A stretch of 64,000 nt of DNA from Candidatus Omnitrophota bacterium (GTDB lineage Bacteria; Omnitrophota; Gorgyraeia; Gygaellales; Profunditerraquicolaceae): the NCBI GenBank assembly GCA_030650425.1, contig JAUSED010000002.1, positions 2,388 to 66,387 on the forward strand. The letters run 5' to 3'. The position numbers were made by a program, and so were the translations under genes. This document shows, one piece after another, positions 9,599 through 63,961 of this stretch (position 1 is the stretch's first letter; each line of letters begins with the position of its first letter). The notes under the pieces were generated by a model, which was not told the DNA's origin, made no database searches, and saw only the letters and a program-made list of their open reading frames with translations.

Positions 9599-9611
9599 CT
9601 TTCTCGCCTCA

Positions 9612-12587
9612 TTACCTAAACACTATCGACCCTGCCTTACCTTCAACATTTCCCTGTCCACCGTTCACATTGATTGTGCCGGATATCGCTCCGCCCCTGC
9701 CCACGACATCAATCCTTCCGCCCTCTCCGCCTTGGGATGAGCTGGAGCCGCCTTGCGCGTGGATCACCGCTCCTGCTCCGCCGAATTTATCCGCGGATAA
9801 ACTTATCTGCCCGGCGCCGGCGCCTGTTCCTTCTTTTCCGTCGGCAGTAATTGCGCTGTAAATATAAAAATTCCCTCTCGCGTTAAGCTTGATCAGGCCG
9901 CCCTTATTGTTATTTACTCCGTTTGCCTCAATCGAGGCCTTCGGTTCGATATTTATATTGCCCGCTGAAATATCTAATTTTGAGTTTGGCGTATGAGTCA
10001 ACACGCTGTTTGAGCCAACCGTAAGGTTACCGCTGATCGTAATTTGGCCTTCGCCATCCTGTATCAACCTGCCGCCTTTACGCACCACTATTTCCTGACA
10101 ACCCTTATTCACCCCTGCCTTCAGCACCAAGGTAGAGGTATTTTTCCCTGTCCCGTCGCCGATAGTCAGTTTGCGGAAAGAAATTGGTTCATCCGCGTAA
10201 ACCGTAGCCTTACCGGCGATCTTTACTTCCGTGTTTAATCCCGGGGCCTTTCCGCCTAACCAAGAAGCGGCATTACTCCATTTCCCCTCGCCGCTGGCAA
10301 TATAGTCGCTGGATTCTTCTGCCGCCCGCGAACCAAAAGTTTTATCCGAGGTATCAAAAATAGACGGGTCATTGGCGTCGGATATTTTAATCAACAGCTT
10401 TTCTCCGGCTGCCACAGGCTGCCAAAGGTATTCTCCGCTATTGGCTATCTGCCCGGCGATCAGCGTATAATTTTTACCGCCATCGGAAGAATAGGCGATA
10501 TCAAATGGATAAGACGATTCGTATTCTCCGGCCAGCCAAACAATATCTCCTTGGCTATCCGCGCTAAAAGTTTCTCCGCCGTTAGGAGAAACAAGATTAA
10601 TCTTTCCCGGACGGTAATCTAAGGAAAACATCGATAAGCCGTCATTGCGGGAGAAAAAGGGGACTGTCCCCGCAGGGGACTGTCCCCTTTTTCCCGAGAA
10701 ATCCAACCGCGCCTTCAGGCTTGTCCCCGGCTTAAAATCCTTCTTGGAGGCGTAATAAAATTTTTCATTTACGCAGTCTTTCTTAAAACTTACGCCGCTA
10801 TCCGCGGAAACGCTTACGGATAGATCCGCGTTATCCGAAGAAGACATCTTCCATGAAGGTACGAGGATACGTGTCGGCTGATTGCTCGCGGCCAGTTCGC
10901 TTGATAAATAATAACCGCTGGTGGCATCGTCTTTAAGCACAAGTTCTCCGCTGGCTGAAACTTTGGTCCCGCTAAAAACCGCAAGGCTCACGCCCTCCTC
11001 TTTCCCCGTGGCCTCGATCACCGGAAGGGCCTCCGCGAATTTACGCGCGCGGATGGTCCCAAAATACATAATGTTTTTTCCGTTTCCTTCGCCGCCGGAG
11101 CGTAAAGACAAATACCCAGCGCTCGGCGCCGGATCAAACTGATAGCTTGCGCTCGCCTGCGGTGCATCCGTCATCGGAAAAACAGGGACTGTCCCCGAAG
11201 GGGACTGTCCCGTTTTTCCCTCAAATCTTTCAAAAGTCATCTTACCGTTATAAAGGACTATCCTGTAATTATATTTTTCTCCGGTAACCGTTGGCTTGGC
11301 CGCGCTGTCATTCGCCTTCACGATTCCATTGGGAGCGATGCAATGCTCTGCCCCTTTATATATAGAGGAATAAGCAAGGTAAATAGGGCTGTCATAAGAG
11401 GCTTCATTTTTATTCAGGATATCTAAACTGTTTTCAAAACCGCTTGTAAGCTGACAGGAATATTCAATCACCCCTTCTTTGAATTGGAAATTTTTACTGA
11501 TGATTTTAGCCGCGTCCAATTTAATCCCTTCATCACTTATTTCCGCGCTTCCATTTTGCTCGGTGTGGGTTACCCATTTATCTTTGTCTAAGGTGGGGGA
11601 TTGCCCCGCATTCTGCGGGGTCCCGCTTGGGCGGGAAAAATCTTCATAAAAATCAAAGGTCGCGTTCGGATTGGAAAGGTCTTCAGCTTCGCTATTACCA
11701 TAATATAGGTAAAGGGTTACTCCTTCCTTAGGGATCTGCGGAATTTTTACCCAGAACGTGGCTGTGCGGCTGCCTTTTTCGCCTTCTATGCTCTCTCTGT
11801 AAAAGGAGAGTGCTGTTTGGCGGTCAGCCGCGGTAAAACGGATATCTTTAAAATCCGCCAGCGTGTGGCCGTTTACATCTAGATCAACGTCTTTAACCGC
11901 GTCGCTTTCTCCAATTTTTAATTTTAATTGGTAATTATATAAATCCTGAGTGGGGGATCTTTTTATAGTTATTTCTTTACGGTAGAGAAACCCGCTTAAA
12001 GTTGGTTCGCCAAAATCTCCGGCTACCCCTTGAGTGTCGGTATAATTAATATTTACGCGGGAGAGCTTTGCGTCAGCCTCTAAAGTTTGGGCGCGCCAGC
12101 GCAAGCGGTTGCCGTTTACAAAACCGCTTTTCATTGGAACGCCGTTAGTCACCGGATAATAATGCAGGCCGTTGTCCGCGCTTACTTCAAAATTAATTTT
12201 TCCGGTAGCGGTATAATTCGCGGTGATCGATTTTATTTGTCCATCCGTGGCGATGAAACTATCCATAGCATAAACCCCTTGTGAAATTTTCGGGAGGCCT
12301 AAGGTCTGCGCATTATCCGCGCTCCAGATCAACGCTTTCTTTAAAGTCACCACTTCCGCGCTGGCGCAATTCACGAATATCACAAATAAAAAGAGACCCA
12401 AAAAAAACAGAAACAGTTTCCGAGCCAATCGGGAAACTGTTTCCGAGCCAATCGGGAAACTGTTTCCGAGCCAATCGGGACAGTGGGCTTTCACTCCAGT
12501 TATCCTCATCTCTTCTCTTTTCATCTTTTGCCTCTTTTTTTCTGTATCTCTATGATAAATATACATTATTATAGAGTACAAAAACAA
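9612..12587 (-). CDS. Secreted protein with a DUF2341/LamG-like domain (about 960-990 aa). Its C-terminal Gly-rich region resembles the N-terminal region of the giant protein.
   Basis: It has a signal-peptide-like KLFLFFLGLFLFVIFVNCASA. The DUF2341 hallmark is present: …DIRFTAADRQTALSFYRESIEG…TFWVKIPQIPKEGVTLYLYYGNSEA. The C-terminal GGAGAVIHAQGGSSSSQGGEGGRIDVVGRGGAISG parallels the giant protein's N-region. The track's N-terminus (MFLYSIIMYIYH…PDWLGNSFPIGSETVSRLARK) is read straight through the palindromic-repeat array at 12410-12488. The real start is probably inside 12428-12509, for example the TTG at 12428-12426. Confidence 0.6.
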   Translation of the reverse strand: MFLYSIIMYIYHRDTEKKRQKMKREEMRITGVKAHCPDWLGNSFPIGSETVSRLARKLFLFFLGLFLFVIFVNCASAEVVTLKKALIWSADNAQTLGLPKISQGVYAMDSFIATDGQIKSITANYTATGKINFEVSADNGLHYYPVTNGVPMKSGFVNGNRLRWRAQTLEADAKLSRVNINYTDTQGVAGDFGEPTLSGFLYRKEITIKRSPTQDLYNYQLKLKIGESDAVKDVDLDVNGHTLADFKDIRFTAADRQTALSFYRESIEGEKGSRTATFWVKIPQIPKEGVTLYLYYGNSEAEDLSNPNATFDFYEDFSRPSGTPQNAGQSPTLDKDKWVTHTEQNGSAEISDEGIKLDAAKIISKNFQFKEGVIEYSCQLTSGFENSLDILNKNEASYDSPIYLAYSSIYKGAEHCIAPNGIVKANDSAAKPTVTGEKYNYRIVLYNGKMTFERFEGKTGQSPSGTVPVFPMTDAPQASASYQFDPAPSAGYLSLRSGGEGNGKNIMYFGTIRARKFAEALPVIEATGKEEGVSLAVFSGTKVSASGELVLKDDATSGYYLSSELAASNQPTRILVPSWKMSSSDNADLSVSVSADSGVSFKKDCVNEKFYYASKKDFKPGTSLKARLDFSGKRGQSPAGTVPFFSRNDGLSMFSLDYRPGKINLVSPNGGETFSADSQGDIVWLAGEYESSYPFDIAYSSDGGKNYTLIAGQIANSGEYLWQPVAAGEKLLIKISDANDPSIFDTSDKTFGSRAAEESSDYIASGEGKWSNAASWLGGKAPGLNTEVKIAGKATVYADEPISFRKLTIGDGTGKNTSTLVLKAGVNKGCQEIVVRKGGRLIQDGEGQITISGNLTVGSNSVLTHTPNSKLDISAGNINIEPKASIEANGVNNNKGGLIKLNARGNFYIYSAITADGKEGTGAGAGQISLSADKFGGAGAVIHAQGGSSSSQGGEGGRIDVVGRGGAISGTINVNGGQGNVEGKAGSIVFR
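12410..12488. repeat. BIME/REP-like array A: three copies of GGAAAC(T/A)GTTTCC with the 10-bp spacer gagccaatcg, plus a terminal gggacagtgggc
   Basis: cagaaacagtttccgagccaatcgggaaactgtttccgagccaatcgggaaactgtttccgagccaatcgggacagtgggc. Confidence 0.85.
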
Positions 12588-12636
12588 TCGTAAAACTACT
12601 CAATAAGCTTGCGCATATTACTCTACCCCTAAGACT

Positions 12637-12752
12637 GGAAACAGTTTCCAATCTGTGAAGGAAACTGTTTCCATCCCAAAGCGGAAACTGTTTCCGAACC
12701 AATCGGGACAGTGGGCTATCTTTCAGATTGGACATTTCAGATTGGACATTTC
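12637..12752. repeat. BIME/REP-like array B: three GGAAAC(A/T)GTTTCC copies with spacers aatctgtgaa, atcccaaagc and gaaccaatcg, plus gggacagtgggc, followed by a 15-bp direct repeat cagattggacatttc ×2
   Basis: ggaaacagtttccaatctgtgaaggaaactgtttccatcccaaagcggaaactgtttccgaaccaatcgggacagtgggc…cagattggacatttcagattggacatttc. Confidence 0.85.
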
Positions 12753-12764
12753 CCCTCATAAAAA

Positions 12765-14153
12765 TCATCTCACAACCTCCCAATGTCCACCTTTTGCAGG
12801 ACCAATTCGCTTTATTAAACCTTTCTTCTTTAACCGTCGTATATTCTTATCAATGGCCGTAGTGCTAATTCCTATGCTCTTTGAAAGTTCTTCCTTGGAA
12901 ATTACGGGATCCCTTTTTACAAGAACTAGGATTTTCTTCTGGCTTTCTACCAACCCTTCTACCAACCCTTCTACCCACCCTTCTTTACTTTCTTCCCGCA
13001 GGCTATATGATGGCCTACGGAATATAATTCTAAAGAAGGTGCCGCTTTTGATCACCGGATATGGAAGGCCGGATTTCTTCATTAAATCCCTCATCCGCCG
13101 GATACCCATCCCTATGCGCTCTACTTTACCCATCCGGGCAAAAAGATCGGCAATAAGTTCGTTGCGTCGGACCGAAAGATTAATAAGAGAGCGCGGAGTT
13201 AACCCTTCGGGTATTCCTCCCGGATTTCTTATTTCCACGCGGTCTTCATGCACCTCAACCATACTACTCGTTCCCCTCATACTGTAATCGCGATGAATAA
13301 TGGCATTAGCCACGGCTTCACGCAACGCCTCTATAGGCATCTCGTAAATATCTCTGCGATTTACTCCCTGTATTTCACTGCGAACATTAAGGTGCTTCTC
13401 GAGAAAAGTGATTGCCCTATTAAACTGGGTTAGAAGGTCATCCTGAACATCTTCCCGATCATAAATGTGGATTCTGTTTTTTCCTTTAAAAGCCGCTAGG
13501 ATCATTTCGCACTGCAAGATATGCCGCCGCGGCTTTTTTGCGAAGAAAAGCACGCCGGCATTTTTTATGTGCTCACCATCGCACAGATTAAGGCTTGAGA
13601 GAATTCTCTGCGTGTCTATCGAAGAAACATGAATATTTGCTTCTTTGAAAAATTCATTTATTTTTGATTCATCAATATCGCTAAAATTTGCTTCTGTATT
13701 TATTTGTTCTTCAAATGATGATTTAAAAGCTTGCTTGAATAAAAGTTCTATCTCCCTGCGGTTCATCTTTTGCGTCACTGCGTCCAACCGCCTAAAATAG
13801 CCATCACCGCAACTGTAGGGTTTATCCATTCCCTCTTCTATATCAATAACAATAATCGTCTCCACCTGTGCAATCCTTTTAATTGAAATTTGTGGTTCGC
13901 AATGACGGGCGATGTCGATAATTTCCGCTTTGAGTTTATTAGTTAATTTCTCGCCGGTAACCCTCCCGTCATCTGTAATGCCAAGAAGAATATAGCCGCC
14001 TTTTGTATTTGAAAAGGCGGTAATATCCCGGTTAATTCTGGAAGTATAATGTTCCTTAAATTCAACCGTCAATCCTTCGCCTTCAGATATTAGTAACCTT
14101 AGGTTTTCTGATTTCATATAATGCCCGTTACGCATCAATAATTTTGTTCTCAA
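12765..14153 (-). CDS. Putative ATP-binding transcriptional regulator: an AlbA_2 (Schlafen-like) DNA-binding domain, an HATPase_c_4 domain and a C-terminal winged HTH
   Basis: The N-terminus LLISEGEGLTVEFKEHYTS…ITAFSNTKGGYILLGITDDGRV is typical of AlbA_2 domains. The C-terminus …KEELSKSIGISTTAIDKNIRRLKKKGLIKRIG reads as a winged helix. The gene carries an in-frame 15-nt tandem repeat (ccaacccttctac ×3 at about 12935-12990) that encodes LVEGLVEGLVE. Confidence 0.55.
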   Translation of the reverse strand: MRTKLLMRNGHYMKSENLRLLISEGEGLTVEFKEHYTSRINRDITAFSNTKGGYILLGITDDGRVTGEKLTNKLKAEIIDIARHCEPQISIKRIAQVETIIVIDIEEGMDKPYSCGDGYFRRLDAVTQKMNRREIELLFKQAFKSSFEEQINTEANFSDIDESKINEFFKEANIHVSSIDTQRILSSLNLCDGEHIKNAGVLFFAKKPRRHILQCEMILAAFKGKNRIHIYDREDVQDDLLTQFNRAITFLEKHLNVRSEIQGVNRRDIYEMPIEALREAVANAIIHRDYSMRGTSSMVEVHEDRVEIRNPGGIPEGLTPRSLINLSVRRNELIADLFARMGKVERIGMGIRRMRDLMKKSGLPYPVIKSGTFFRIIFRRPSYSLREESKEGWVEGLVEGLVESQKKILVLVKRDPVISKEELSKSIGISTTAIDKNIRRLKKKGLIKRIGPAKGGHWEVVR

Positions 14154-14766
14154 AAGAGTATTTTATCAGGTCGCTTGTCCGGTGCAGATCCAGCTTCTTA
14201 AGTATGGCATTCTTATAGTTTTCTACTGTCCGGCGGCTTAAAAAGAGCACCTCGGCTATTTCTTTAGCCGTCTTACCTTCTGTAACCAAGCGTAAAATGT
14301 CCAATTCCCGTTCATTTAACAACTGTTCAATCGGCTGTTTTTTGGGCTCCTTGGCCGCTTGCGCTAAATATTCAGCCGTAGCTTGGCCTAAATAGGTTTT
14401 GCCGCTTGAGACGCGCGAGAGCGCCAAAATTAACTCTTCGGCAACATTATCCTTGTTTAGGTAGCCGCTCACCCCCTGCCGCAAGGCCTTTAAGACATAC
14501 GCTCCCAATTTATGCATCGTAACAATAATTATTTTGGTTGCCGGCGAAATCCTTTTTACCCGCGCGATAATATCCAGCCCTCCAAGCTTCGGCATTGAAA
14601 TATCCAGAAGCAAAATATCGGGCTTATAGTCTTGCGTTATTTTCAAAGCCTCTTCTCCATTGGAGGCCTCGGCGCAGATTTCATATTCAGTATGCTTGGC
14701 TAATACGCTCTTAATCCCCGCGCGGATTATACTATGGTCATCAACGATTGCGATCTTTATAGCCAT
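14128..14766 (-). CDS. Response regulator of the NarL/LuxR family (REC domain plus LuxR-type HTH)
   Basis: MAIKIAIVDDH…DILLLDISMPKLGG is a receiver domain. The C-terminal LSRRTVENYKNAILKKL is a LuxR-type HTH. Confidence 0.9.
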   Translation of the reverse strand: MAIKIAIVDDHSIIRAGIKSVLAKHTEYEICAEASNGEEALKITQDYKPDILLLDISMPKLGGLDIIARVKRISPATKIIIVTMHKLGAYVLKALRQGVSGYLNKDNVAEELILALSRVSSGKTYLGQATAEYLAQAAKEPKKQPIEQLLNERELDILRLVTEGKTAKEIAEVLFLSRRTVENYKNAILKKLDLHRTSDLIKYSFENKIIDA

Positions 14767-14769
14767 ATT

Positions 14770-16158
14770 TTAAATCGGGAGCACCACGTTAATCGTAGTT
14801 CCCTTTCCGAGTCCGGACTCGATATGCATTGAACCGTCTAAAACTTCCACCCTCTCTTTTAAACCTACAAGCCCTAAACGCAGCTTATCTTCCCTGCGCC
14901 TTAACAATCTCTGCGTGACTAACTGGTAATCGAAACCCCGGCCATTGTCATGATAAAATAATTCCAGGGAATTTTTATTCCTATTCAAACGCACCTCGAC
15001 ATTTTTAGCCTTAGCGTGCTTAGCCATATTCGTAAGCAGCTCCTGAATTATACGATAAATTAATAAACTGTACTCCGGGGGTAATTCAAAATTGTTATCT
15101 GCCTTCTGAAAAATATATTCCACTCCGGTAAGTTGTTTCGTCTCTATAAGCAGCGACTCAAGGCTCTCTAATAACCCTACCTCGTCTAAATCCGGCGGCC
15201 TAAGCAAAAAAGCTATATTGTGGCTTTTATCAATAAGCGTTGAAGCTATCTTTTTACATTCTTCAACCTTTGTAATTAAATCTTCCGGGGACACATTGCT
15301 TTTAAAGCAATGTGTCCCCGGAAACCCTGCTAACTCTTGTGAGATCAGCCCCAAGTAAATCTTCAGCGCGCTTAAATCCTGGCCCATTTCATCATGCACC
15401 GCTGTGGAAAGTTTTTTGCGTTCACTCTCCTCCATATTGATCAAGCGGTTAAAAAGCTGCTGGCGATAAGAGTGTTCTTTTATCCTGCGCCGGTATACTG
15501 AAACCGCGATCAGCGTCCCGATAAGCAGCGCGGCCATTAAACTAAGCCTCAAGAAAAGAACCGCCTGCTCCTTATCCGCATTAGCCAAAAACATCTGCCG
15601 CTCAACCTCTTGCAGATTAGCCTTACCCATAGAGCTATCCAGGAATTCGTCTATTTTATAAACGCGGTTTTCAAACGTCATCAGCAGATTATTCACAGTA
15701 TCGCTCGTTTTGTCGGATTGCCCCAGATCAACCAATTCCACTATTTTTGCGCCCAACGCCAGAAGCTCATTGAAAGACGCGGTTATCTGATTTGCCCAAT
15801 CTTTCTGCTGCGCCAGATAAGCGCTATCTTGGTAAATCTTAAGCTGTTTTTTAAATTTATCCCCGGCGCCTAAGATGCTATTTATGTTGACGGCCATAGG
15901 CAGGGCGCCCAGATAACGCGACGATTTCCAATATACATAGTTACGCACACCCATCGCGTAGATTGTATTGCTTATCCGCATTTCAAGTACCGCTCCTTCA
16001 AGCCTAAGGCTATGCTTTCCTAAATCTTCGATTTTTCGGCTAAGCCCGTTGATCTGAGAAATGGAGACCAAGCCGATTACCAACGTAAGCAGAATTAAAA
16101 ACGCGAAAGCAAAGAGAAGTTTTTTTTCCTTAAAATTTATCGGCTTTATATTTTCCAT
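14770..16158 (-). CDS. Sensor histidine kinase (HisKA_3/HATPase; NarX/UhpB-like) with N-terminal TM segments
   Basis: The H-box is AVHDEMGQDLSALK. The ATPase region reads NVEVRLNRN…FYHDNGRGFD…GLVGLKERVEVLDGSM. An in-frame palindromic insertion at 15285-15321 encodes GTHCFKSNVSP. Confidence 0.85.
   Translation of the reverse strand: MENIKPINFKEKKLLFAFAFLILLTLVIGLVSISQINGLSRKIEDLGKHSLRLEGAVLEMRISNTIYAMGVRNYVYWKSSRYLGALPMAVNINSILGAGDKFKKQLKIYQDSAYLAQQKDWANQITASFNELLALGAKIVELVDLGQSDKTSDTVNNLLMTFENRVYKIDEFLDSSMGKANLQEVERQMFLANADKEQAVLFLRLSLMAALLIGTLIAVSVYRRRIKEHSYRQQLFNRLINMEESERKKLSTAVHDEMGQDLSALKIYLGLISQELAGFPGTHCFKSNVSPEDLITKVEECKKIASTLIDKSHNIAFLLRPPDLDEVGLLESLESLLIETKQLTGVEYIFQKADNNFELPPEYSLLIYRIIQELLTNMAKHAKAKNVEVRLNRNKNSLELFYHDNGRGFDYQLVTQRLLRRREDKLRLGLVGLKERVEVLDGSMHIESGLGKGTTINVVLPI
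15285..15321. repeat. Inverted-repeat element GGGGACACATTGC-TTTTAAA-GCAATGTGTCCCC, in frame inside the histidine-kinase CDS
   Basis: Perfect 13-bp arms. It is related to the GGGGACACTTTCC…GGAAAGTGTCCCC family at 27154, 41334 and 42980. Confidence 0.8.
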
Positions 16159-16165
16159 TTATACT

Positions 16166-16270
16166 GGAAACTGTTTCCAATCTGTGAGGGAAACTGTTTC
16201 CGAGCCAATCGGGAAACTGTTTCCCGAACAACTCGGAAACTGTTTCCGCTTTGGGATGGAAACTGTTTCG
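16166..16270. repeat. BIME/REP-like array C: five GGAAACTGTTTC(C/G) copies with 10-bp spacers
   Basis: tggaaactgtttccaatctgtgagggaaactgtttccgagccaatcgggaaactgtttcccgaacaactcggaaactgtttccgctttgggatggaaactgtttcg. It fills the whole gap between the secretin stop (16272) and the kinase start (16158). Confidence 0.85.
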
Positions 16271-16271
16271 C

Positions 16272-18335
16272 CTACTTTTGACTTTTCTCTTCTTGCCATT
16301 TCTCGAACTCTTTGACACGCTGCAGCGCCTCTTTGGTCCAGTCATCGTCGGGATCACCGTAGGAAACACGCTTGCGCCAGTAATCCAGGGCCTTAGCGCT
16401 ATCCCCTTTCCCTTCGTTAAATAAAGCTAAGTTAGCATAGGCTGCCGCGTAATCCGGATTAACGGAAATTGCCTTAAGATACATCGCTTCGGCCTCTCTG
16501 GGCTTACCCTCCTGTTCATAAATAATCCCTAAATTATTGTAGGCCGGAGCTAATTTATTATCCAATTGAATGGCTTTAAGGAAAAATTCTTTAGCATCCT
16601 TAGGGTTAGCATCGGCTTGCGCGCGCAGCCCTTTTTGATAATAATCATTGGCATTATCCTGAAGCAAAAAGTGACTGTCACTTTTGTGACTGTCACTTTT
16701 TTTCTCTCCCGATGGTAAATCCATAGTTGCCTCTTCCAATGCCTCATCCCGAGCCACCTTTTTTTGCAGGTTTTCGGGAAGATACTCATTGGGAATAAAC
16801 TGCGTTATTTTCTTGCCTTTTAAATCCATATCCCCGCGGATGATATGCGGAGTAATAAAGATGATAACCTCGGTTTTGGTAATCGATTTATCGCGGTTGC
16901 TGAAAAGCGCGCCGAGAAACGGAATCTTGGAAATTATTGGCACCCCTACAATATCATCAGTCTCCTCAGTCTTAGTCATCCCGGCAAGCACAATCATCGT
17001 TCCGTCCTTAACCTTGACTGTCGTCTCTGACTGTGAAGTTTGAACAATCGGCACAAGGCTCCCCAACGCTGTGGTGAGCGTTTGTTTAACCGAGCTGACT
17101 TCGGGTTTAAGCTTCATCGTGATAAAACCGTCGGCACCGATCCGGGGGACGATTTTTAATTTCACGCCCACATCGACAAACTCTACCGACTCCGAAGTAA
17201 CTGTGGTCGAGGTTGCCTGGCTCTGCGTCTGAGTGATATAAGCGTCACGCTCGCCAACCATCAGGTTGGCTTCTTCATTGTTCACAATCGCGATCCTCGG
17301 CTGTGAAATGACATTGGTCTTGCCGTAAGTTTCCAGGAATTTTATTAAAATATGATTTCCGCTGGTCGTGGTATTCACGAGGATCTGCTGGTAGTTGGTC
17401 AAAGTAATAGGAAAGTAACCGGTAAAGGTAATTCCATTATTTACCGCGGCTTTCATGATCTCCTGCCAATCTATCCCTCTTTGAAACTCTTTGCTTAAGG
17501 TCAGCTCAATTACATCCGCTTCCACATAAACCTGCCGGGATTCCTCATCTAACTCTCTTACCAGCCTTTCTATTTTCTCCATCTTCTTCGGCAGGTCGCT
17601 GACGATCGCCTTTTGGCTTCTTTCGTCAATAATCACCTCGCCTGTCCCCGGGGTGATCGCCGCGTTCAATTGGGTTTTGGCGTCGGCGGCCTTAGCGTAA
17701 TTAAGGTTAAATACCGACGTACCCAGCGGCTGGTCCAGTTCAGTAATCGTTTCCTTCAATAATTTCAGCTTTTCCGGTGTATCGATAAGTATGACTGTGC
17801 CGCTTGTTTCATCGACGACGATTTTACCTACGTCGGATTTTAATTGCCCCAGCGCGTTAAAAATCGTCGCGGGCTTGGCATAAGTAAGCTTAACCATTTC
17901 TAAGTTTCTCTGGTCAATGTAATCTTTACCGTAAATTTTCTTGTATTCTGCCGCGGTCATCACATAATAAACGTTTCCCTTTTTGTACGAAGCAAGGTCC
18001 TGCGTAAGCAGAATGATATCCAAGACATCGTCAAATACAACATTACTCAAATAGATGGTAATGCGCCCGGATATGCCTTTACTGGGGACGATGGTCTTTC
18101 CGGTTTTAAGGGAGATGATCCGCAAAAGTTCGACAATTTCAACATTCTTCAGGTCGAGAGAGATTTTATCTTGCTCAAGCGCTCCCTTTTGACCCGCCTG
18201 TTTTACCTCGGCGGCGTAAGTCGAAAGCGGGGCAATCAAGAAAAAGGTGACAAAGGTGACAAATAGGGACAGCGCCAATTTTTTCAATAGCCTTTGGATT
18301 AGTAAAAAATGGTCGCTGTCCCTATTTATCCTCAT
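16272..18335 (-). CDS. Secretin (GspD/PilQ/MshL family) with a C-terminal TPR-repeat extension
   Basis: The secretin core reads …VISQPRIAIVNNEEANLMVGERDAYITQTQ…IPFLGALFSNRDKSITKTEVIIFITPHIIR. The C-terminal TPR units read YYQKGL…AYNNLGIIYEQEGKPREAEAMYLKAISVNPDYAAAYANLALF. An in-frame doublet palindrome at 16670-16697 encodes KSDSHKSDSH. Confidence 0.85.
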   Translation of the reverse strand: MRINRDSDHFLLIQRLLKKLALSLFVTFVTFFLIAPLSTYAAEVKQAGQKGALEQDKISLDLKNVEIVELLRIISLKTGKTIVPSKGISGRITIYLSNVVFDDVLDIILLTQDLASYKKGNVYYVMTAAEYKKIYGKDYIDQRNLEMVKLTYAKPATIFNALGQLKSDVGKIVVDETSGTVILIDTPEKLKLLKETITELDQPLGTSVFNLNYAKAADAKTQLNAAITPGTGEVIIDERSQKAIVSDLPKKMEKIERLVRELDEESRQVYVEADVIELTLSKEFQRGIDWQEIMKAAVNNGITFTGYFPITLTNYQQILVNTTTSGNHILIKFLETYGKTNVISQPRIAIVNNEEANLMVGERDAYITQTQSQATSTTVTSESVEFVDVGVKLKIVPRIGADGFITMKLKPEVSSVKQTLTTALGSLVPIVQTSQSETTVKVKDGTMIVLAGMTKTEETDDIVGVPIISKIPFLGALFSNRDKSITKTEVIIFITPHIIRGDMDLKGKKITQFIPNEYLPENLQKKVARDEALEEATMDLPSGEKKSDSHKSDSHFLLQDNANDYYQKGLRAQADANPKDAKEFFLKAIQLDNKLAPAYNNLGIIYEQEGKPREAEAMYLKAISVNPDYAAAYANLALFNEGKGDSAKALDYWRKRVSYGDPDDDWTKEALQRVKEFEKWQEEKSQK
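16670..16697. repeat. Doublet palindrome GTGACTGTCAC-tttt-GTGACTGTCAC inside the secretin CDS, in frame
   Basis: agtgactgtcacttttgtgactgtcactttttt. Confidence 0.85.
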
Positions 18336-19840: not shown

Positions 19841-20496
19841 CTTAATTCGTAGTCGCTTGTTTTTCCGCCGGAAGAAATCTCCAAGGTGGCTGAATTACGC
19901 GAAACCTCTTTAATCTTAAATTGTTCGTTTTCAAAAGAATCGCCTTTTTTTAAAACATAGGTCCGGGAGTTAGGATCCTTGCCGTACTCAATCATTACTT
20001 CAGGGTTAGCTGACCAAATGATCCCCACTAACTTTAAATCCTTAGTCAGTTCGGCCACTTTTGGGCCATCTGTTTCAACAGATTCAATGGGTTTAACCCC
20101 GGGCGGAAGGAAAATATCTCTTTTGATATCCTGAGGTAAAACATTTTTACGCAGGATACCCTGGTTTTCTCTCGAAGAAATCACTTTGGATATCGCCGCC
20201 GCGTCGGTAGAAGTAAAATAAGCGGCATTGGAGGCCGAAACAACCGGCCCGCTTAAAAGGCTGTAAATTAAAAAAAGGGTAACTACGGAGGCGGTTAAGA
20301 CCAAAACCTTATTGAGAAGGGGAAGGTTGAACTTAAATTCTTTAATATCTTTCAGGTTTAAGCCGAATTTATGTGTAGGTATAAGCTCGGATAATGATTT
20401 TTTCGGGCTTACGCCGATACTTGGCTTACGCTTGATTTCACCTGTGCCGCCTTCGATAATCTTTAGTAGTCTTTCGTCTGAAGTCCCCTTATCCAT
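19837..20496 (-). CDS. PilP/GspC-like secretin-associated protein. A short cytoplasmic N-terminus and one TM precede a periplasmic β-domain.
   Basis: The TM segment is VLVLTASVVTLFLIYSLL. The C-terminal region reads GIIWSANPEVMIEYGKDPNSRTYVLKKGDSFENEQFKIKEVSRNSATLEI. It sits directly upstream of the secretins. The track start METVSKGK is a translation of a GAAACAGTTTC repeat, so the start is moved to the ATG at 20496-20494 (MDKGTSDE…). Confidence 0.5.
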   Translation of the reverse strand: MDKGTSDERLLKIIEGGTGEIKRKPSIGVSPKKSLSELIPTHKFGLNLKDIKEFKFNLPLLNKVLVLTASVVTLFLIYSLLSGPVVSASNAAYFTSTDAAAISKVISSRENQGILRKNVLPQDIKRDIFLPPGVKPIESVETDGPKVAELTKDLKLVGIIWSANPEVMIEYGKDPNSRTYVLKKGDSFENEQFKIKEVSRNSATLEISSGGKTSDYELR

Positions 20497-20505
20497 TTTT
20501 CCTTT

Positions 20506-20564
20506 CGAAACTGTTTCCATCCCAATCGGGAAACTGTTTCCGAGCCAATCGGGACAGTGTCCCC
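20506..20564. repeat. BIME/REP-like array D: GAAACTGTTTCC, GGAAACTGTTTCC, and the hybrid GGGACAGTGTCCCC
   Basis: cgaaactgtttccatcccaatcgggaaactgtttccgagccaatcgggacagtgtcccc. Confidence 0.85.
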
Positions 20565-20570
20565 TCTCCG

Positions 20571-21395
20571 CTATACCGCATTCCTGGCAATTAAATCCCG
20601 CACTAAGGTCGCGTCGATCACCGTCTTATTACTGGTAATCAAGCTCCTGAGCGCGTTATGACAAACTAAATTTATCCTGCGCGGATATCCCTGGCTATAA
20701 CGATGAATCTCGCTAATTGCCTCATCTGTAAAGAGTTTCAGCTCAGAATTAAACCCCGAGGCCCGCAACCGGTAATTGATCATATCCCTTGTCTCTTTTT
20801 CATCCAGGGGATTGATTACATATTTAAGGACGATGCGGTCAAAAAAGTTCTTGATCTCTTTGATCCGCGGGAGGAGCTCCATCTGGGAAAAAAGGACCAG
20901 CTGTAATAATTTATATTCGTTGGTTTCATAATTTAACAAGACGCGCAATACTTCTAAGGAAGCCGGATTAAGTTTTTGCGCTTCATCCACCACAAAAACA
21001 ATCGTTTTATTTTCTTCCACGCCTTTTTGAAAAAGAAACTTCTTGATCGCCTCTTTATAATCCAACACATTGGGAGAAGATTTAATTTCATCCTGAATGC
21101 CGAAGGTGCGTACTAGCGACTCCATAAAAAGTTCTTCACTCTGGGGGGTAGGATCCATAATCATATAAAAAAGAATATCTGGCCGCTCCTTTAACATCTG
21201 AAAAAGCTTACGCGATAGAGTAGTCTTACCCACCCCCACATCTCCTAAGATGACGCTTAATCCACGGCGCAAACGTATCTCGACCAAGACTCGAAGCAGG
21301 CAGGCCTTATGTTCGATAGATTCATAGAAGAAAGCCGGATCCGGGCTGCTGGAGAAAGGTTCTTTTTCTAAACCTAATACGGTATAATAGCTCAT
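20571..21395 (-). CDS. AAA ATPase of the ExeA/GspA/MshM family
   Basis: The Walker A motif is GDVGVGKTTL and the Walker B motif is TIVFVVDEAQKL. The family is usually encoded next to secretins. Confidence 0.7.
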   Translation of the reverse strand: MSYYTVLGLEKEPFSSSPDPAFFYESIEHKACLLRVLVEIRLRRGLSVILGDVGVGKTTLSRKLFQMLKERPDILFYMIMDPTPQSEELFMESLVRTFGIQDEIKSSPNVLDYKEAIKKFLFQKGVEENKTIVFVVDEAQKLNPASLEVLRVLLNYETNEYKLLQLVLFSQMELLPRIKEIKNFFDRIVLKYVINPLDEKETRDMINYRLRASGFNSELKLFTDEAISEIHRYSQGYPRRINLVCHNALRSLITSNKTVIDATLVRDLIARNAV

Positions 21396-21622
21396 TGTCC
21401 TTTTAACAAAATCCCCCGGATAAGATGCAGCGAATATCCCTGGCTCTTAAGCTTGCTTATTCTGGCTAACCCGGAGCGAACCTCCCGGATACTATATAAA
21501 CGGTTATTCCCCTCCCTCCTGCGTACTTTTAATAAACCCAAGTTCGTATAATAATTGATTGTCTGATAAGAAAGATTGTATTTCTTGCTGATTTCAATAG
21601 GTGAGATTAAAGTTTTTGCCAT
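21392..21622 (-). CDS. Small MerR-family helix-turn-helix DNA-binding protein
   Basis: ISPIEISKKYNLSYQTINYYTNLGLL is a MerR-type HTH. A strong AAGGAGG ribosome-binding site lies 6 nt before the ATG. Confidence 0.55.
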   Translation of the reverse strand: MAKTLISPIEISKKYNLSYQTINYYTNLGLLKVRRREGNNRLYSIREVRSGLARISKLKSQGYSLHLIRGILLKGQ

Positions 21623-21649
21623 CGCGCTCCTCCTTAAGGTGCTTAGAAC

Positions 21650-21924: not shown

Positions 21925-22034
21925 CTATCTAAAATTGCATTAAATCATCCTGAAGAAAAAATCTGGGGAAAGCAATTATTTTTGTAAAAAAAGGGGGACG
22001 GTTATATTTTTCGGGTTTTCTGATGCCAAAAAAA

Positions 22035-22073
22035 GGTGACGGTCACGAAATGCGTGACTGTCACCTTTTTTTT
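22035..22073 (-). terminator. Rho-independent terminator built from paired GTGAC(N)GTCAC palindromes and a T8/A8 run; bidirectional
   Basis: aaaaaaaGGTGACGGTCACGaaatGCGTGACTGTCACCtttttttt, immediately 3' of the lipoprotein gene stop at 22081. Confidence 0.75.
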
Positions 22074-23073: not shown

Positions 23074-23118
23074 TTGAGATATAATACTACTTTGGCCAGG
23101 TTGTGTCAACCGGAAAAT

Positions 23119-23180
23119 GGGGACTGTCCCCCGCCTTTTGGGGACTGTCCCCATTTTCTTCGTGACTGTCACCTTTTTTT
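23119..23180. repeat. Doublet GGGGACTGTCCCC-cgcctttt-GGGGACTGTCCCC, then GTGACTGTCAC and a T7 run. It looks like a terminator for the PilZ gene.
   Basis: ggggactgtcccccgccttttggggactgtccccattttcttcgtgactgtcaccttttttt. Confidence 0.8.
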
Positions 23181-24000: not shown

Positions 24001-24010
24001 TGCGGGAAAA

Positions 24011-24047
24011 GGTGACAGTCACGCACTTCGTGGACTGTCACCTTTTC
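24011..24047 (-). terminator. Paired-palindrome terminator after folE
   Basis: GGTGACAGTCACGCacttCGTGGACTGTCACCttttc. Confidence 0.6.
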
Positions 24048-26009: not shown

Positions 26010-26050
26010 TTTATAGACAGTTAAACGCGTCCCACTTTCCCGATTACCTC

Positions 26051-26133
26051 GGAAACAGTTTCCCTCACAAGTTGGAAACAGTTTCCATTCTAAAGGGGAA
26101 ACTGTTTCCGAGGTAAGGCGGAAACTGTCCCCC
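26051..26133. repeat. BIME/REP-like array E: four copies (GGAAACAGTTTCC ×2, GGAAACTGTTTCC, and the hybrid GGAAACTGTCCCC). It overlaps the last 14 codons and the stop codon of folC.
   Basis: ggaaacagtttccctcacaagttggaaacagtttccattctaaaggggaaactgtttccgaggtaaggcggaaactgtccccc. Confidence 0.85.
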
Positions 26134-27529
26134 GGGCTTCTCCTACTACATATAATGAACCGGTAACTAAAATTAAGTCTTGTTTTTCGGTAAGCATTAA
26201 AGCTAGATCTTTTGCCTCTTTGACGCTATTTGTAATATGCGTTTCTTTACCTTTGAAGTATTTTTTAAGAACCTCTGGCTCGGTTGCGCGCGGGTTATTG
26301 GATTTAGTCAATATAATCTTATCGGCTAAAGCATAAAGTTCTTGCGCTACCCCTTTTATGTCCTTATCACCTGAGATACCTAACACCAGAATCAAATTCC
26401 GGTAATAAAATCTTGTTTGAATCGCCTTTTTTAAAATCGCGGCGGAAGCGGCATTTTGCGCGCCGTCTAAAACAATAACCGGCTGCTTAGCTACCAATTC
26501 GCAGCGGCCCGGCCATAAAGTATTATAAAGCCCTCTCCTCAGAGAATCAACCTCGACTTTAATTGCGTGGCCTCGCAAAGAGCCGATTGCGGCTAAGGCA
26601 GTTACGGCATTCATCACTTGATGCGCTCCAATTAATTTTATCTTTAGATTTTTATAATTTCCATAAGGACCGCTGATTCTAAAATTATCTTCATTCCCGC
26701 TATATTCTATATCTTTTCCTACTACCAATAATCTTGCTCTTTCTTTTTTACATTTACGCCTGATAACCTCCAATGCCTCTTTTTTTTGCGGAGCGGAAAT
26801 TACAGTAGAATTATATTTAATTATTCCGGATTTTTCCGAAGCTATCTTCTTTAGCGTATGGCCTAATTTATCCATATGTTCATAACTTATCGGAGTAATC
26901 ACGCTTACTAAAGGATTAACCACATTCGTCGCGTCTAATCTTCCGCCTAAGCCGGTCTCTAAGACCGCTAAATCAACTTTTTTTTCTTGAAAATATAAAA
27001 AGGCTAAAGCTGTGCAGGCTTCAAAAAAGGTAAGTCGGCCGTAAATCGAACTACGGTTATATTTTTCTATCGCGGGTTTTAATCTTTTCACTAAACTGGT
27101 GAGCTTAGGCTTAGAAATCATCCCTTCAAAGTCGGCCAGGGACAACGCATTGACAGGGGACACTTTCCTTTGGGCAGCAGGAGACACTTTCCTGCAGGAG
27201 TTTACGACTTGCTGGAAAGTGTCCCCTGCCAGTGGAACCAAAATCCTTATTCGTTCGCGAAAATCGATTAGATGCGGAGAGGTGTAAAGCCCGACCCGGA
27301 AACCAGCTTCCCTTAATATATAGGTAATAAAAGCAGCTGTGGAACCTTTACCTTTTGATCCGGCTACGTGGATACATTTAAGGAAGCGCTCAGGGTTATT
27401 AATTGAACTCAGGAATCCTCGGAAGCGCTTTAAATCCAGCGCTTCTTTATAGGGATAGCTGGAAAGCTTTTCGTAGTTAACCAAAGATTCCAGGTAGCGG
27501 ATTGCTTCTTGGTAGGACATACTAAACAA
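26090..27529 (-). CDS. folC: Bifunctional folylpolyglutamate synthase/dihydrofolate synthase, carrying an in-frame inverted-repeat insertion
   Basis: The Mur-ligase/FolC motifs are VAGSKGKGSTAAF and …LETGLGGRLDATNV… The insertion at 27154-27228 encodes …LAGDTFQQVVNSCRKVSPAAQRKVSPV… The C-terminal tail …ALPRKQFPL comes from the repeat array. Confidence 0.85.
   Translation of the reverse strand: MFSMSYQEAIRYLESLVNYEKLSSYPYKEALDLKRFRGFLSSINNPERFLKCIHVAGSKGKGSTAAFITYILREAGFRVGLYTSPHLIDFRERIRILVPLAGDTFQQVVNSCRKVSPAAQRKVSPVNALSLADFEGMISKPKLTSLVKRLKPAIEKYNRSSIYGRLTFFEACTALAFLYFQEKKVDLAVLETGLGGRLDATNVVNPLVSVITPISYEHMDKLGHTLKKIASEKSGIIKYNSTVISAPQKKEALEVIRRKCKKERARLLVVGKDIEYSGNEDNFRISGPYGNYKNLKIKLIGAHQVMNAVTALAAIGSLRGHAIKVEVDSLRRGLYNTLWPGRCELVAKQPVIVLDGAQNAASAAILKKAIQTRFYYRNLILVLGISGDKDIKGVAQELYALADKIILTKSNNPRATEPEVLKKYFKGKETHITNSVKEAKDLALMLTEKQDLILVTGSLYVVGEARGTVSALPRKQFPL
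27154..27228. repeat. Inverted-repeat element (GGGGACACTTTCC … a degenerate GGAGACACTTTCC copy … GGAAAGTGTCCCC), in frame in folC
   Basis: tgacaggggacactttcctttgggcagcaggagacactttcctgcaggagtttacgacttgctggaaagtgtcccctgcc. Confidence 0.85.
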
Positions 27530-40794: not shown

Positions 40795-40993
40795 TGGCTA
40801 TCTTTAAGGTTTCTTTGGCTCTCTGCGGATCAACTTTTTCAATAGCAAAACCCGCATGAACCAATACATAATCCCCGATTTTTAGGTCGGGAAGCATCTG
40901 AATGTTGATCTTGCGTAAAAGCCTTCCGCACTCAACTTCGGCAAAATCATCGTTAATCTTTTTGACTTTCATCGGTATACCTAAACACATCAT
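40781..40993 (-). CDS. hypC: Hydrogenase maturation factor HypC (HupF/HypC family)
   Basis: The N-terminus MMCLGIPMKV matches the MC(L/I)(G/A)(I/V)P signature. The length is about 70 aa. It overlaps hypD by 14 nt. Confidence 0.85.
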   Translation of the reverse strand: MMCLGIPMKVKKINDDFAEVECGRLLRKINIQMLPDLKIGDYVLVHAGFAIEKVDPQRAKETLKIANEIH

Positions 40994-42099
40994 TAACCTC
41001 CATACCCCGCGATTACAGCCTGGCCTAAAGAAATACCCGCGTCATTGCAAGGCAAATATTGATGCGTAAAAACCTGAAAACCTTCTTTGTTTAATAAACC
41101 CGAGCTCATCTTGAGTAAAACTTTATTCTGAAAAACTCCTCCGGATAAAGCGATTTTATTTGTCCTATGTTCTTTTCTTAAAATCAGCGCTATTTTCACC
41201 ATCATTTCAGCTACGCCTTGATGGAAACGCCAAGCAATCTTTTCCCGAGATATCTTTAACTTTAAATCTTTGATAATTTGTTTAAGAATATTAGTCGGAT
41301 CTAAAATATACCCGCCTTTATCCTTCCTTATCACAGCAGGGGACACTTTCCTACGCGCGTTTACTATTTGTTGGAAAGTGTCCCCTGCTGTTGACGCCTC
41401 GGCTAATTTTTCCAGCTCAATTGCCAGCTCTGCTTCAAACGCCGCTTTCCTTTTACCCAAAACAAGGCTTCCTGCCGCGTCAAAAAGCCTGCCCATACTA
41501 CTGGCTAAAGGAGAATTGATCCCTGATTTATATATTTTATTTAAAATCTGTTTTTTATCTACGCTCTGATCAAAATTAAGCCAAGCTGCCAGCGTTCTCC
41601 ACGGTTCGAATATCGCCCGCTCTCCTCCAACCAGAGGAATTTCTTTTAAATGCGCTAAGCGCGAGAATTTTTGATAATCACAGAGCAAAACCTCTGCTCC
41701 CCAAATAGTATTATCCGTTCCTAAACCAGTCCCGTCAAAAGCCAAGCCGATTATTTTTTGGTTTTCCAGCCCATTTTCCGCCATGCAAGAAGCGATATGC
41801 GCATGGTGATGTTGAACATGTAGTATATAGTACTTAACAGGCAGGGATTCGCTAAATTTAGTTGACTGATACTCAGGGTGTAAATCGCAGGCGATAATCT
41901 TAGGATGTTTTTTAAGGAAATGTTTTGCGTCTTTCTCAAAAGCCGCTAAATCCTTAGGCCTGCTTAGGTCCGCATGCAGCGGGCTAAGATAAGCGCCATC
42001 CCCTCGCGCGAAACAAATAGTATTCTTGGCCTGGCCGCCTAAGGCCAAAACCGTATTCTTTAATTTAAAAGGCAGCCTAACTTCTAGTGTTTTCATCAA
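40993..42099 (-). CDS. HypF-like carbamoyltransferase consisting only of the C-terminal Kae1/YgjD-like domain. The acylphosphatase, Zn-finger and YrdC domains are absent.
   Basis: The C-terminus KIALSGGVFQNKVLLK…PCNDAGISLGQAVIAG and the HHHAHI motif match the HypF C-terminal domain. The ORF is only 368 aa. An in-frame inverted-repeat insertion at 41334-41390 encodes STAGDTFQQIVNARRKVSPAV. Confidence 0.7.
   Translation of the reverse strand: MMKTLEVRLPFKLKNTVLALGGQAKNTICFARGDGAYLSPLHADLSRPKDLAAFEKDAKHFLKKHPKIIACDLHPEYQSTKFSESLPVKYYILHVQHHHAHIASCMAENGLENQKIIGLAFDGTGLGTDNTIWGAEVLLCDYQKFSRLAHLKEIPLVGGERAIFEPWRTLAAWLNFDQSVDKKQILNKIYKSGINSPLASSMGRLFDAAGSLVLGKRKAAFEAELAIELEKLAEASTAGDTFQQIVNARRKVSPAVIRKDKGGYILDPTNILKQIIKDLKLKISREKIAWRFHQGVAEMMVKIALILRKEHRTNKIALSGGVFQNKVLLKMSSGLLNKEGFQVFTHQYLPCNDAGISLGQAVIAGYGG
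41334..41390. repeat. Inverted-repeat element CAGCAGGGGACACTTTCC…GGAAAGTGTCCCCTGCTG, in frame in the hypF-like gene
   Basis: cagcaggggacactttcctacgcgcgtttactatttgttggaaagtgtcccctgctg. Confidence 0.85.
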
Positions 42100-42979: not shown

Positions 42980-43044
42980 GCAGTAGGGGACACTTTCCGT
43001 CAGGGCTATCAGGAACCTCTTGAAAGGAAAGTGTCCCCTACTGC
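42980..43044. repeat. Inverted-repeat element GCAGTAGGGGACACTTTCC…GGAAAGTGTCCCCTACTGC (19-bp arms). Its right half supplies the last 13 codons and the stop of the DUF2156-like gene.
   Basis: gcagtaggggacactttccgtcagggctatcaggaacctcttgaaaggaaagtgtcccctactgc. Confidence 0.85.
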
Positions 43045-51393: not shown

Positions 51394-51422
51394 TTACGCT
51401 ATCCCACTTTCCCGATTAGCTC

Positions 51423-51458
51423 GGAAACAGTTTCCGCTTTGAGATGGAAACAGTTTCC
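51423..51458. repeat. BIME/REP-like array F: GGAAACAGTTTCC ×2 with the spacer gctttgagat
   Basis: tcggaaacagtttccgctttgagatggaaacagtttcc. Confidence 0.85.
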
Positions 51459-51466
51459 AAGGTTTT

Positions 51467-60698: not shown

Positions 60699-63961
<3,263 letters not shown>

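Follow-up and report, generated by a model that had tools for sequence, protein, structure and literature searches.

The closest described systems to the elements reported here are short palindromic repeats of bacterial genomes. The elements in question, palindromic units of 11-13 nt that mostly occur as doublets or arrays, lie in a 64,000-nt stretch of DNA from a Candidatus Omnitrophota bacterium (GenBank assembly GCA_030650425.1, contig JAUSED010000002.1, positions 2,388 to 66,387; hereafter the window), and several of them are translated in frame inside long genes. Pairs of repetitive extragenic palindromes (REPs), known as REPINs, are mobilised by REP-associated tyrosine transposases (RAYTs) (Bertels & Rainey 2011, PMC3116915; PMC3337134). 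The elements of the window resemble them in that short units are mostly paired into a larger hairpin, in that many copies exist, several of them just downstream of genes, and in that in other genomes the units bracket a gene for a RAYT-matching protein of ~160 amino acids. They differ in their 11-13 nt units without a GTAG head, in pairs that are often direct by their central base, in the 23-bp period of the GGAAAC arrays, which reach 5-6 units, in an unusually high intragenic share and in that no RAYT is seen in the window.

REPs have been divided into GTAG- and CGTC-tagged superfamilies, the latter defined by an 8-9 bp stem whose first pairs are A-T, a 4-5 nt loop, a short CCA tail and an unpaired terminal CGTC (or TGTC/CCTC) at one end (Di Nocera et al. 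2013, PMC3733652). Intragenic REPs lying wholly within open reading frames (ORFs) were described in the same study; they are often dimers, encode 20-30 amino acids, sometimes occur twice in a gene, are often N-terminal and frequent in replication/repair genes, and are most numerous in Opitutus terrae and Rickettsia conorii, those of the latter being equivalent to the Rickettsia palindromic elements (RPEs) (PMC3733652). The window shares with these the in-frame doublets, four of the insertions in one gene, N-terminal copies and one copy in gyrB, and a CGTCATTGCG flank that resembles the CGTC tag. Its elements differ by stems of 13-24 bp, loops of 3-10 nt, the lack of a CCA tail, a CGTC that is present at some copies and set apart from the stem, the coexistence of several families, arrays with a 23-bp period in one of them (F3, below) and a host of a different phylum.

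RPEs, reportedly described by Ogata and co-workers in 2000 and 2002, are said to be ~100-150 bp long, restricted to Rickettsia and inserted in frame at fold-compatible positions of many unrelated genes, and we know of no transposase for them. Palindromic repeats translated in frame at fold-compatible sites of unrelated genes are also what is found here; length (27-96 nt), the number of families, the link to RAYTs and the Omnitrophota host set the two apart by description. Inverted termini are present as in miniature inverted-repeat transposable elements, and a target-site duplication was not seen. Like intrinsic terminators, both intergenic and intragenic copies consist of a GC-rich hairpin followed by a U-tract, and the upstream A-tract would make them bidirectional; terminators are not repeat families and normally lie outside translated ORFs. 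DNA uptake sequences form one evenly spread motif at about 1 per kb, whereas several clustered unit types are found here.

Three doublets lie inside two minus-strand ORFs, 9612..12587 and 16272..18335, which are stop-free across them. On re-reading, the sequences are aaaaa-GGGGACTGTCCCC-gca-GGGGACTGTCCCC-ttttt at 10654-10692, GGGACTGTCCCC-gaa-GGGGACTGTCCC-gttttt at 11185-11217 and aaaaa-GTGACTGTCAC-tttt-GTGACTGTCAC-tttttt at 16666-16702, to within one base of where the original prediction from the sequence had placed them. They translate to RGQSPAGTVPFF, TGQSPSGTVPVF and KSDSHKSDSH, respectively; the predicted in-frame translation is thereby borne out, with no in-frame stop and with the peptides GQSPxGTVPxF, found twice, and KSDSHKSDSH. 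It had also been proposed that the same elements look like intrinsic terminators in intergenic positions, and copies with strong hairpins indeed lie 4-13 nt past stop codons. In the window, GGGACTGTCCC gives 12 strand-matches (6 sites) where 0.40 are expected and GTGACTGTCAC gives 12 where 0.06 are expected, and five doublets with a GACTGTC core compare with 0.00 in 100 shuffles. Because these counts far exceed expectation and shuffles, the doublets did not arise by chance. The terminator-like doublets are genuine, and they are translated.

Across the whole window, palindromes of the form N>=3-AC-W-GT-N' amount to 30 units, against 0.9 expected, which fall into 13 arrays or doublets. The unit, 11-13 nt of the form N4-AC-W-GT-N4', comes in three variants, F1 (GGGGAC-W-GTCCCC), F2 (GTGAC-W-GTCAC) and the most frequent, F3 (GGAAAC-W-GTTTCC). 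Between the variants both arms change as pairs (GGGG/CCCC, GTG/CAC, GGAA/TTCC), with AC-W-GT constant. Doublets including their flanks measure 29-47 bp, with stems of 13-24 bp and loops of 3-10 nt, and all fold as a single long hairpin; the elements as a whole span 27-96 nt. F3 arrays of the window contain 2-5 units separated by 10-nt spacers, giving the 23-bp period, and frequently carry a conserved terminus, CCCACTGTCCCGATTGGCTC or its complement. An 11-mer, CCGTCATTGCG, has three exact copies, two of which abut F1/F2 doublets. It adjoins the doublets at 10639 and 23994, is degenerate at 11170, stands at both ends of a palindrome in gyrB, and is missing at the doublets 16670, 22030 and 23120. 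Further palindrome families are a 20-bp hairpin, F5 (arms CAGGGGACACTTTCC; copies at 27148-27234, 41333-41391 and 42980-43044), a palindrome with 27-nt arms, and ACGTCATTGCGAGG...CCTCGCAATGACGT.

The first two doublets belong to the gene of a DUF2341/LamG-like secreted protein (9612..12524, minus strand; ORF open to a TTG at 12587), which carries four in-frame palindrome inserts. The protein matches Pfam DUF2341 with an E value of 1.3e-19 and has 100 homologues in Omnitrophota, the best of them 64% identical. Of its description as a 991-residue protein the ORF stands but the start is doubtful: the true start is probably the ATG at 12524, giving 970 amino acids, because an AAGAGG Shine-Dalgarno sequence lies 6 nt upstream and the orthologues begin with MKREE/MKRKE. 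An alignment with 15 orthologues (A1) revealed four segments unique to the window protein, every one of them palindrome-encoded. The F1 doublet at 10654..10692 (A5-GGGGACTGTCCCC-gca-GGGGACTGTCCCC-T5, followed on the sense strand by CTCCCGCAATGACGG) encodes RGQSPAGTVPFFS, residues 613-625, and faces a 9-residue gap in 15/15 orthologues; its sense RNA has a folding energy of -35.6 kcal/mol (z -5.4). The second F1 doublet (GGGACTGTCCCC-gaa-GGGGACTGTCCC with A5/T5 flanks, 11178..11217; -31.6 kcal/mol) encodes KTGQSPSGTVPVFPMTD, residues 437-453, with a 14-residue gap in 14/15 orthologues and another palindrome at that site in the relative's protein P0001. A degenerate hairpin, GGGAC-CCCGCA-gaa-TGCGGGG-CAATCCCC (11590..11635; -21.9 kcal/mol), encodes PSGTPQNAGQS, residues 299-309, in the DUF2341/LamG-like linker, and these 11 residues are missing in 15/15 orthologues. 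The fourth insert consists of three GGAAAC-W-GTTTCC units with CGATTGGCTC spacers, preceded by the terminus CCCACTGTCCC (12410..12467), and is translated in frame within the signal-peptide n-region, residues 13-33; orthologues keep the MKREE start but lack ~17-20 residues at this site.

An AlphaFold2 model of the protein built on A1 (mean predicted local distance difference test, pLDDT, 62.6; predicted template modelling score 0.35), used solely for loop location, places the four inserts in coil stretches with pLDDT <50 (residues 1-35, 277-309, 438-452 and 611-645) and the 11185 insert between two strands of the LamG-like sandwich. Since the flanks of the inserts align continuously with the orthologues, the ORF represents one gene. 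Comparison with orthologues thus bears out the suspicion that the GQSPxGTVPxF peptides are lineage-specific inserts, as they lack a counterpart in all 15. For KSDSHKSDSH of the secretin, the same kind of comparison establishes a non-conserved linker but does not permit a clean insertion call. A giant ORF of >3,207 codons (2-9622, minus strand), with DUF7483 repeats, Laminin_G_3, Big_5 and DUF7361 domains, lies directly downstream of the DUF2341 gene and runs off the start of the window; its site is occupied in relatives by proteins of 2,680 or 913+1,381 amino acids, and no palindrome family was seen inside it.

The third doublet, of type F2 (A5-GTGACTGTCAC-tttt-GTGACTGTCAC-T6, 16666..16702; -22 kcal/mol), encodes KSDSHKSDSH in the Secretin-TPR linker of the TPR-secretin gene (16272..18335, minus strand; Pfam Secretin at residues 334-500 and TPR at residues 575-664). 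Orthologues of 659-741 amino acids have the same fusion. In an alignment with four of them (A3) the linker is hypervariable, ~20 to 85 residues long and without a conserved peptide; its length is equal in the closest relative. At the N-terminus of the same protein, a palindrome with 27-nt arms (ATAGGGACAGCGACCATTTTTT...; 18258..18330) is read in frame in the n-region and is homologous to positions 4923-4984 of the closest relative, L001; the window protein and that of L001 have these additional N-terminal residues, which two other relatives, L161 and L162, lack.

The original prediction tied the in-frame palindromes to secreted proteins, a link that proved incidental, as cytoplasmic proteins host them too, namely FolC, a HypF-like protein, a histidine kinase and GyrB, the last in its intein. 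In the histidine kinase gene (14770..16158) a perfect 20-bp hairpin, TTCCGGGGACACATTGCTTT-t-AAAGCAATGTGTCCCCGGAA (15283..15323), is in frame and gives rise to an 11-residue insert, FPGTHCFKSNV, that is missing in 3/3 orthologues (A4). An F5 palindrome, CAGGGGACACTTTCC ... GGAAAGTGTCCCCTG (27148..27234), is in frame in a FolC-like gene (26090..27529), where T. maritima FPGS (PDB ID: 1o5z) has 3 residues opposite residues 97-136 of the product; the ~37 extra residues include the F5-encoded AGDTFQQVVNSCRKVSPAAQRKVSPV. A second F5 copy (TAGDTFQQIVNARRKVSPA; 41333..41391) is in frame in a HypF-C/Kae1-like gene (40993..42099), whose product has ~12-14 residues more than PDB ID 3vth. The palindrome ACGTCATTGCGAGG ... 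CCTCGCAATGACGT (61933..62028) is in frame inside a GyrB mini-intein. This mini-intein of ~190 residues (residues 464-653 of GyrB, ~61812-62381; GDSAGG/C...VFVHN/S; GyrB itself at 60699-63770, minus strand) has a TPDH block and is devoid of a homing-endonuclease domain, and the CGTCATTGCGAGG palindrome is in frame in its linker.

In total, 10 in-frame palindrome segments occur in 7 of the ~55 genes of the window. Eight of the ten are missing in the homologues compared, the other two being the secretin linker copy and the intein copy. In-frame palindromes therefore extend beyond secreted proteins. For the DUF2341 protein, the TPR-secretin and the kinase, alignments across the inserts ruled out separate genes or a gene fusion.

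In relatives the locus is syntenic, with the order AAA_22, a protein of ~218 amino acids, secretin, TPR-secretin, kinase, LuxR-type regulator, DUF2341 protein and giant protein. The closest relative, L001, is syntenic with 64-73% amino acid identity and contains zero AC-W-GT units. It carries different in-frame palindromes, located at the N-termini of both the secretin and the DUF2341 protein and in the same LamG loop, and the last of these encodes ASPAEGGLAMT, ending in CTCGCAATGACGG. The deposited start of its DUF2341 protein, P0001, is an internal ATG (L001 9869-10000); an upstream in-frame ATG with MKRKE would add 44 residues, all of them palindrome-encoded. Other Omnitrophota also have the GGGGAC doublet, and doublets or arrays are found deep in giant ORFs of the loci L109 and L210, in the former inside an ORF of 2,666 codons. 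The L210 ORF (138-13520), on a metagenome contig, has 4,460 codons and two GGAAAC doublets (6513-6548 and 11803-11836) preceded by ATCCCGTGA repeats, a situation also observed in L186 and L191.

A link to RAYTs was obtained from other genomes. A scan of metagenomes for GGAAAC doublets yielded 81 stretches on contigs of 37-69% GC, with common inverted termini, (A)CCCACT(T/G)TCCCGA... / ...TCGGGA(A/C)AGTGGGT, also written as ACCCACTTTCCCGA.../...TCGGGAAAGTGGGT. When the 103 ORFs beside ~70 distinct metagenomic GGAAAC arrays were scanned with Pfam, 150 families were represented, and the commonest was PF01797 (Y1_Tnp, IS200-like; n=5). The PF01797 proteins, of ~160 amino acids, match the NCBIfam model NF047646 'REP-associated tyrosine transposase' with 76-83 bits (cut-off 80). 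In L215, L228 and L179 the RAYT-like gene stands between inverted GGAAAC arrays with the conserved terminus toward the gene, and the conserved motif on the RAYT-proximal side is GGGA(C/A)AGTGGG. Such inverted bracketing by arrays is the signature layout of RAYT genes and REPs.

The RAYT-like proteins were also used in a tblastn search against the loci fetched for the F1 doublet. A homologous gene lies between GGGGAC doublets in L093 (Planctomycetota; 10 units in 8 kb), and another lies between a GGGAC unit and a doublet in the IMG/VR contig L121, which has 15 units within 4 kb; further homologues are present in L032, L118 and L029. Among the matches listed, the GGGAC-W-GTCCC doublet occurs in genome contigs of very many phyla. 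On viral contigs the GGGGAC target gave 13 stretches, and two control palindromes gave 2 (GGGCAWTGCCC) and 26 (GGGTCWGACCC). Because control palindromes are comparably frequent, the breadth of the doublet is not special, and a special bacteria-wide motif was ruled out; RAYT adjacency accounts for part of that breadth. A stop-free-span test on 118 genome loci was too noisy at high GC to estimate the intragenic fraction, and was suggestive solely in the low-GC loci L109, L045, L023, L066 and L104.

Taken together, the doublets are likely to be copies of REP/REPIN-type repeats that spread in the genome and are tolerated in frame. This is argued by the unrelated housekeeping genes among the hosts, by the presence of other palindromes at the same sites in relatives and by the RAYT flanking elsewhere. 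The elements of this genome are putatively assigned to RAYT-associated families. The evidence points to their being a known kind of selfish DNA, and it does not point to a purpose-built control device. In the proposed mechanism, paired or arrayed units would fold as one long hairpin and spread within the genome, presumably dependent on a RAYT, a Y1/HUH enzyme acting on single-stranded hairpins, with hairpin-templated copying of flanking bases as a possible contributor. Most copies would settle just past stop codons, where they resemble bidirectional terminators or RNA-stabilising hairpins, and selection would remove those intragenic copies that break frame or fold.

What the remaining intragenic copies have in common fits such a filter. 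All six frames of the GGGGAC and GGAAAC units are free of stops, and the GTGAC unit has a TGA in one frame per strand. The units encode GDCP/GTVP/GLSP/GDSP/GQSP (GGGGAC) or GNCF/ETVS/KLF/GNSF/KQF (GGAAAC), the inserts have net lengths divisible by three, Gly, Pro, Ser and Thr abound in the peptides, and the insert sites are loops, linkers and signal-peptide n-regions. These four properties explain why intragenic copies persist, and the host protein would merely gain a loop of 9-30 residues.

Several observations weigh against this assignment. The units have no GTAG tag beside them, which classical RAYT-linked REPs have, and a CGTC-type flank accompanies only 3/6 of the GGGGAC/GTGAC copies. Most doublets are direct by their central base (T..T, with a central mismatch), unlike an inverted REPIN, the inverted (A..T) pairs being 24012/24033, 12410/12432, 12636/12660 and 26073/26097. 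No target-site duplication was found at any insert; the flanks are inverted complements instead. Among the apparent real-gene ORFs of >=100 amino acids in the 64-kb window, Pfam revealed no gene for a RAYT or other transposase, and the link of the GGGGAC/GTGAC units to RAYTs rests on other phyla and on the common unit design. Finally, 27/30 units lie within 10-26 kb, an uneven distribution for a genome-wide repeat.

The inverted flanks raise the question whether palindromes could grow de novo at a site without any transposase, by hairpin-templated strand switching that copies adjacent bases inverted. A codon comparison with orthologues showed for three inserts that the outer end of one stem arm consists of native codons that the orthologues also have, TCC CCG GAA (SPE) in the kinase, GGA AAA (GK) at 11185 and TCG GGA (SG) at 10660, and that the opposite arm is the inverted complement of these codons. 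The outer flanks of the F5 copies likewise differ (CAGCA, GCAGTA, GGCA), each being palindromic within its own copy. On the other hand, the inner cores are near-identical across distant sites and phyla, which requires copying between loci; the RAYT association supplies a mobilising enzyme; and the complementarity of the flanks, 5-9 bases, may equally be target preference or chance. Stems made of native codons fit hairpin-templated extension and an end-complementary target preference alike. As a sole origin, growth of this kind is unlikely, although it may supplement transposition.

Selection for attenuation within genes, in which the intragenic copies would be kept to terminate or pause transcription when translation lags, or to serve as RNase processing sites, and would tune the pilus/secretin operon and the giant gene, appears somewhat more doubtful still. 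The intragenic doublets form strong hairpins in the sense RNA (-35.6, -31.6 and -22.0 kcal/mol; z -4.6 to -5.4) with U5 directly after, are indistinguishable from intergenic copies (-26 to -36 kcal/mol) and are flagged by a terminator scan; identical elements occupy true 3' gene ends, and the secretin N-terminal palindrome is kept in two genomes whose proteins are 73% identical. On these predicted structures it is physically plausible that transcription ends early where ribosomes lag behind. Yet 14-15 orthologues with the same operon lack the inserts, inserts of this kind are found in the unrelated FolC, HypF-like, kinase and GyrB intein genes, and termination inside an ORF would yield non-stop transcripts of no obvious benefit.

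A broader proposal, that in Omnitrophota and perhaps in further lineages with giant surface proteins RAYT-linked palindromes both generate protein loops and install translation-sensitive terminators in long genes and so shape the sequence and expression of surface machinery, seems improbable, and slightly more so than attenuation taken alone. Loops may in that case be generated by insertion, followed by extension through inverted copying of adjacent codons. A related proposal is that GGGGAC-W-GTCCCC would represent a GTAG-less REP family that extends across many phyla and is undescribed in the literature searched.

Operator arrays for a dimeric DNA-binding protein, such as the LuxR-type regulator or MerR, controlling the pilus/secretin genes, are very unlikely. 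The palindromic units with their 20-23 bp period, the arrays flanking the DUF2341 promoter and the concentration of 27/30 units in 10-26 kb would suit operators, but arrays also lie beside tRNA-Arg, FolC and MnmE, metagenomic arrays flank 150 Pfam families of which RAYT alone is enriched, the compensatory stem changes fit structure and not base-specific recognition, and L001 keeps the operon without any unit. DNA uptake sequences are often inverted pairs that double as terminators. With secretin/pilus-like genes in the locus and paired, terminator-like motifs that are tolerated in coding frames, a role in uptake by a type IV pilus/competence machinery could be envisaged; several unrelated unit sequences, their strongly clustered and uneven distribution, the internal spacers, the conserved termini and the RAYT association make it extremely improbable. 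An annotation artefact, in which the long ORFs would be 2-3 genes split by terminators or mis-assembled at the repeats, is barely conceivable, since, for all that the elements look like intergenic terminators and palindromic repeats can confuse assemblers, there is no in-frame stop, single orthologous proteins align across every insert and the 11185 insert splits one beta-sandwich domain.

Outside the genes just described, the copies favoured as REP-type repeats are found at gene borders. Three of the six GGGGAC/GTGAC copies lie 4-13 nt past stop codons and the other three inside genes, and F3 arrays are mostly intergenic. The F2 doublet A7-GGTGACGGTCAC-gaaatgc-GTGACTGTCACC-T8 (22028..22072; -26.4 kcal/mol, z -7.0) is terminator-like and located 9 nt 3' of the stop of the PKD gene. 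A triple of two GGGGAC units and one GTGAC unit (23113..23175; -36.2 kcal/mol) follows directly 3' of the PilZ gene stop, and an F2 doublet followed on the sense strand by CCCGCAATGACGG (24006..24047; -29.7 kcal/mol) lies 13 nt 3' of the folE stop. F3 units form a three-unit array upstream of the DUF2341 promoter (12636..12696, intergenic), a five-unit array that fills the space from the secretin stop to the kinase start (16165..16269; this space measures 10-97 bp in relatives), a doublet with terminus CACTGTCCCGATTGGCTC immediately upstream of the PilP-like gene start (20507..20541), an array with terminus GGGAAAGTGGGA in the FolC-like/MnmE intergenic region (26033..26128) and a doublet with the same terminus GGGAAAGTGGGA between tRNA-Arg and a SLOG-family gene (51422..51459). 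The ORF of the PKD lipoprotein begins at a GTG at 23172 and has 363 codons' worth of amino acids, against 271 in the L001 orthologue; the earlier view that this ORF and that of the PilP-like protein have spurious N-terminal extensions is correct.

The third F5 palindrome, with perfect 19-nt arms (42980..43044), overlaps the LPG_synthase_C gene at its 3' end (stop at 43009-43011) and runs past the stop. It is adjoined by a perfect 15-bp palindrome, TGTAGGGACAGAACA-a-TGTTCTGTCCCTACA (42930-42960), and the two hairpins are stacked between the RNase_T/WYL and LPG_synthase_C genes. Two intergenic hairpins, at 45117-45163 (TTGCAACCTTATGTACACCT..., with a stem of 20-22 bp, beside tRNA-Val) and 31796-31824 (CCCATGTACACCT...), have a common core, ATGTACACCT, and may constitute another small palindrome family. 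The central base is T on the plus strand in 24/30 AC-W-GT units, which puts A on the sense strand, probably also the leading one; such a bias would be compatible with a strand-specific mechanism that acts on single strands.

Palindromes repeatedly end in the motif CGTCATTGCG(A/G)G or its complement CTCGCAATGACG, in the window at 10639, 13898 and 23994 and in L001 at 9888-9998 and 11150-11195. Their translations (SHCEE..., ...ARNDx, ...AMT) are ones that we take to occur in many 'hypothetical proteins' of uncultured bacteria. A literature text search for strings of this motif and its translations retrieved none that contained them, and one for GGGACTGTCCC, GGGACAGTCCC, GTCATTGCGAG and variants gave unrelated primer matches only. 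At gathering thresholds, Rfam found four tRNAs and nothing else in the window, which ruled out a known RNA family. A BLAST search of plasmids with a 39-mer gave one full-length match of 82.5% identity, which is uninformative.

An AlbA_2/Schlafen gene with HATPase_c_4 and winged-helix domains (12765-14153, minus strand) lies between the response regulator and the DUF2341 gene and is not at that position in L001, L161, L162 or the P0004 contig, and L001 has a ParE toxin pair between kinase and regulator (8364-8830). The operon spots around the kinase, regulator and DUF2341 genes seem to accept cargo. Downstream of the giant genes, L162 contains a diversity-generating retroelement with an FGE-sulfatase target, bAvd and reverse transcriptase (19872-22730). 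A palindrome of a different kind, ATAG(T/C)AGTTACTATAACT(A/G)CTAT, is conserved in three genomes (window 21664-21690, L162 2380-2402, L161 2096-2118), just 3' of a sigma-70-like promoter upstream of a small MerR-family gene, and is probably that regulator's own operator.

The kind of element described here is already known; what is notable is how densely coding inserts occur, that a unit without the tag is linked to RAYTs, and that orthologues form clean pairs. About 10 translated palindromes in 64 kb is what we take to be a very high density of REP-type coding inserts, a figure from one window from which extrapolation is unsafe. For annotation, the elements create false N-terminal extensions, and gene callers skip an upstream start, as with P0001 in L001, while the added loops of 9-40 residues can mislead domain and structure prediction in Omnitrophota. 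The REP/RAYT association would be extended to an uncultured phylum and to units that lack GTAG, and orthologue pairs with and without an insert offer clean before/after sets for studying how a hairpin becomes a protein loop. Should transcription indeed end at the intragenic copies, these would offer a natural test of how tightly it is coupled to translation in these bacteria.

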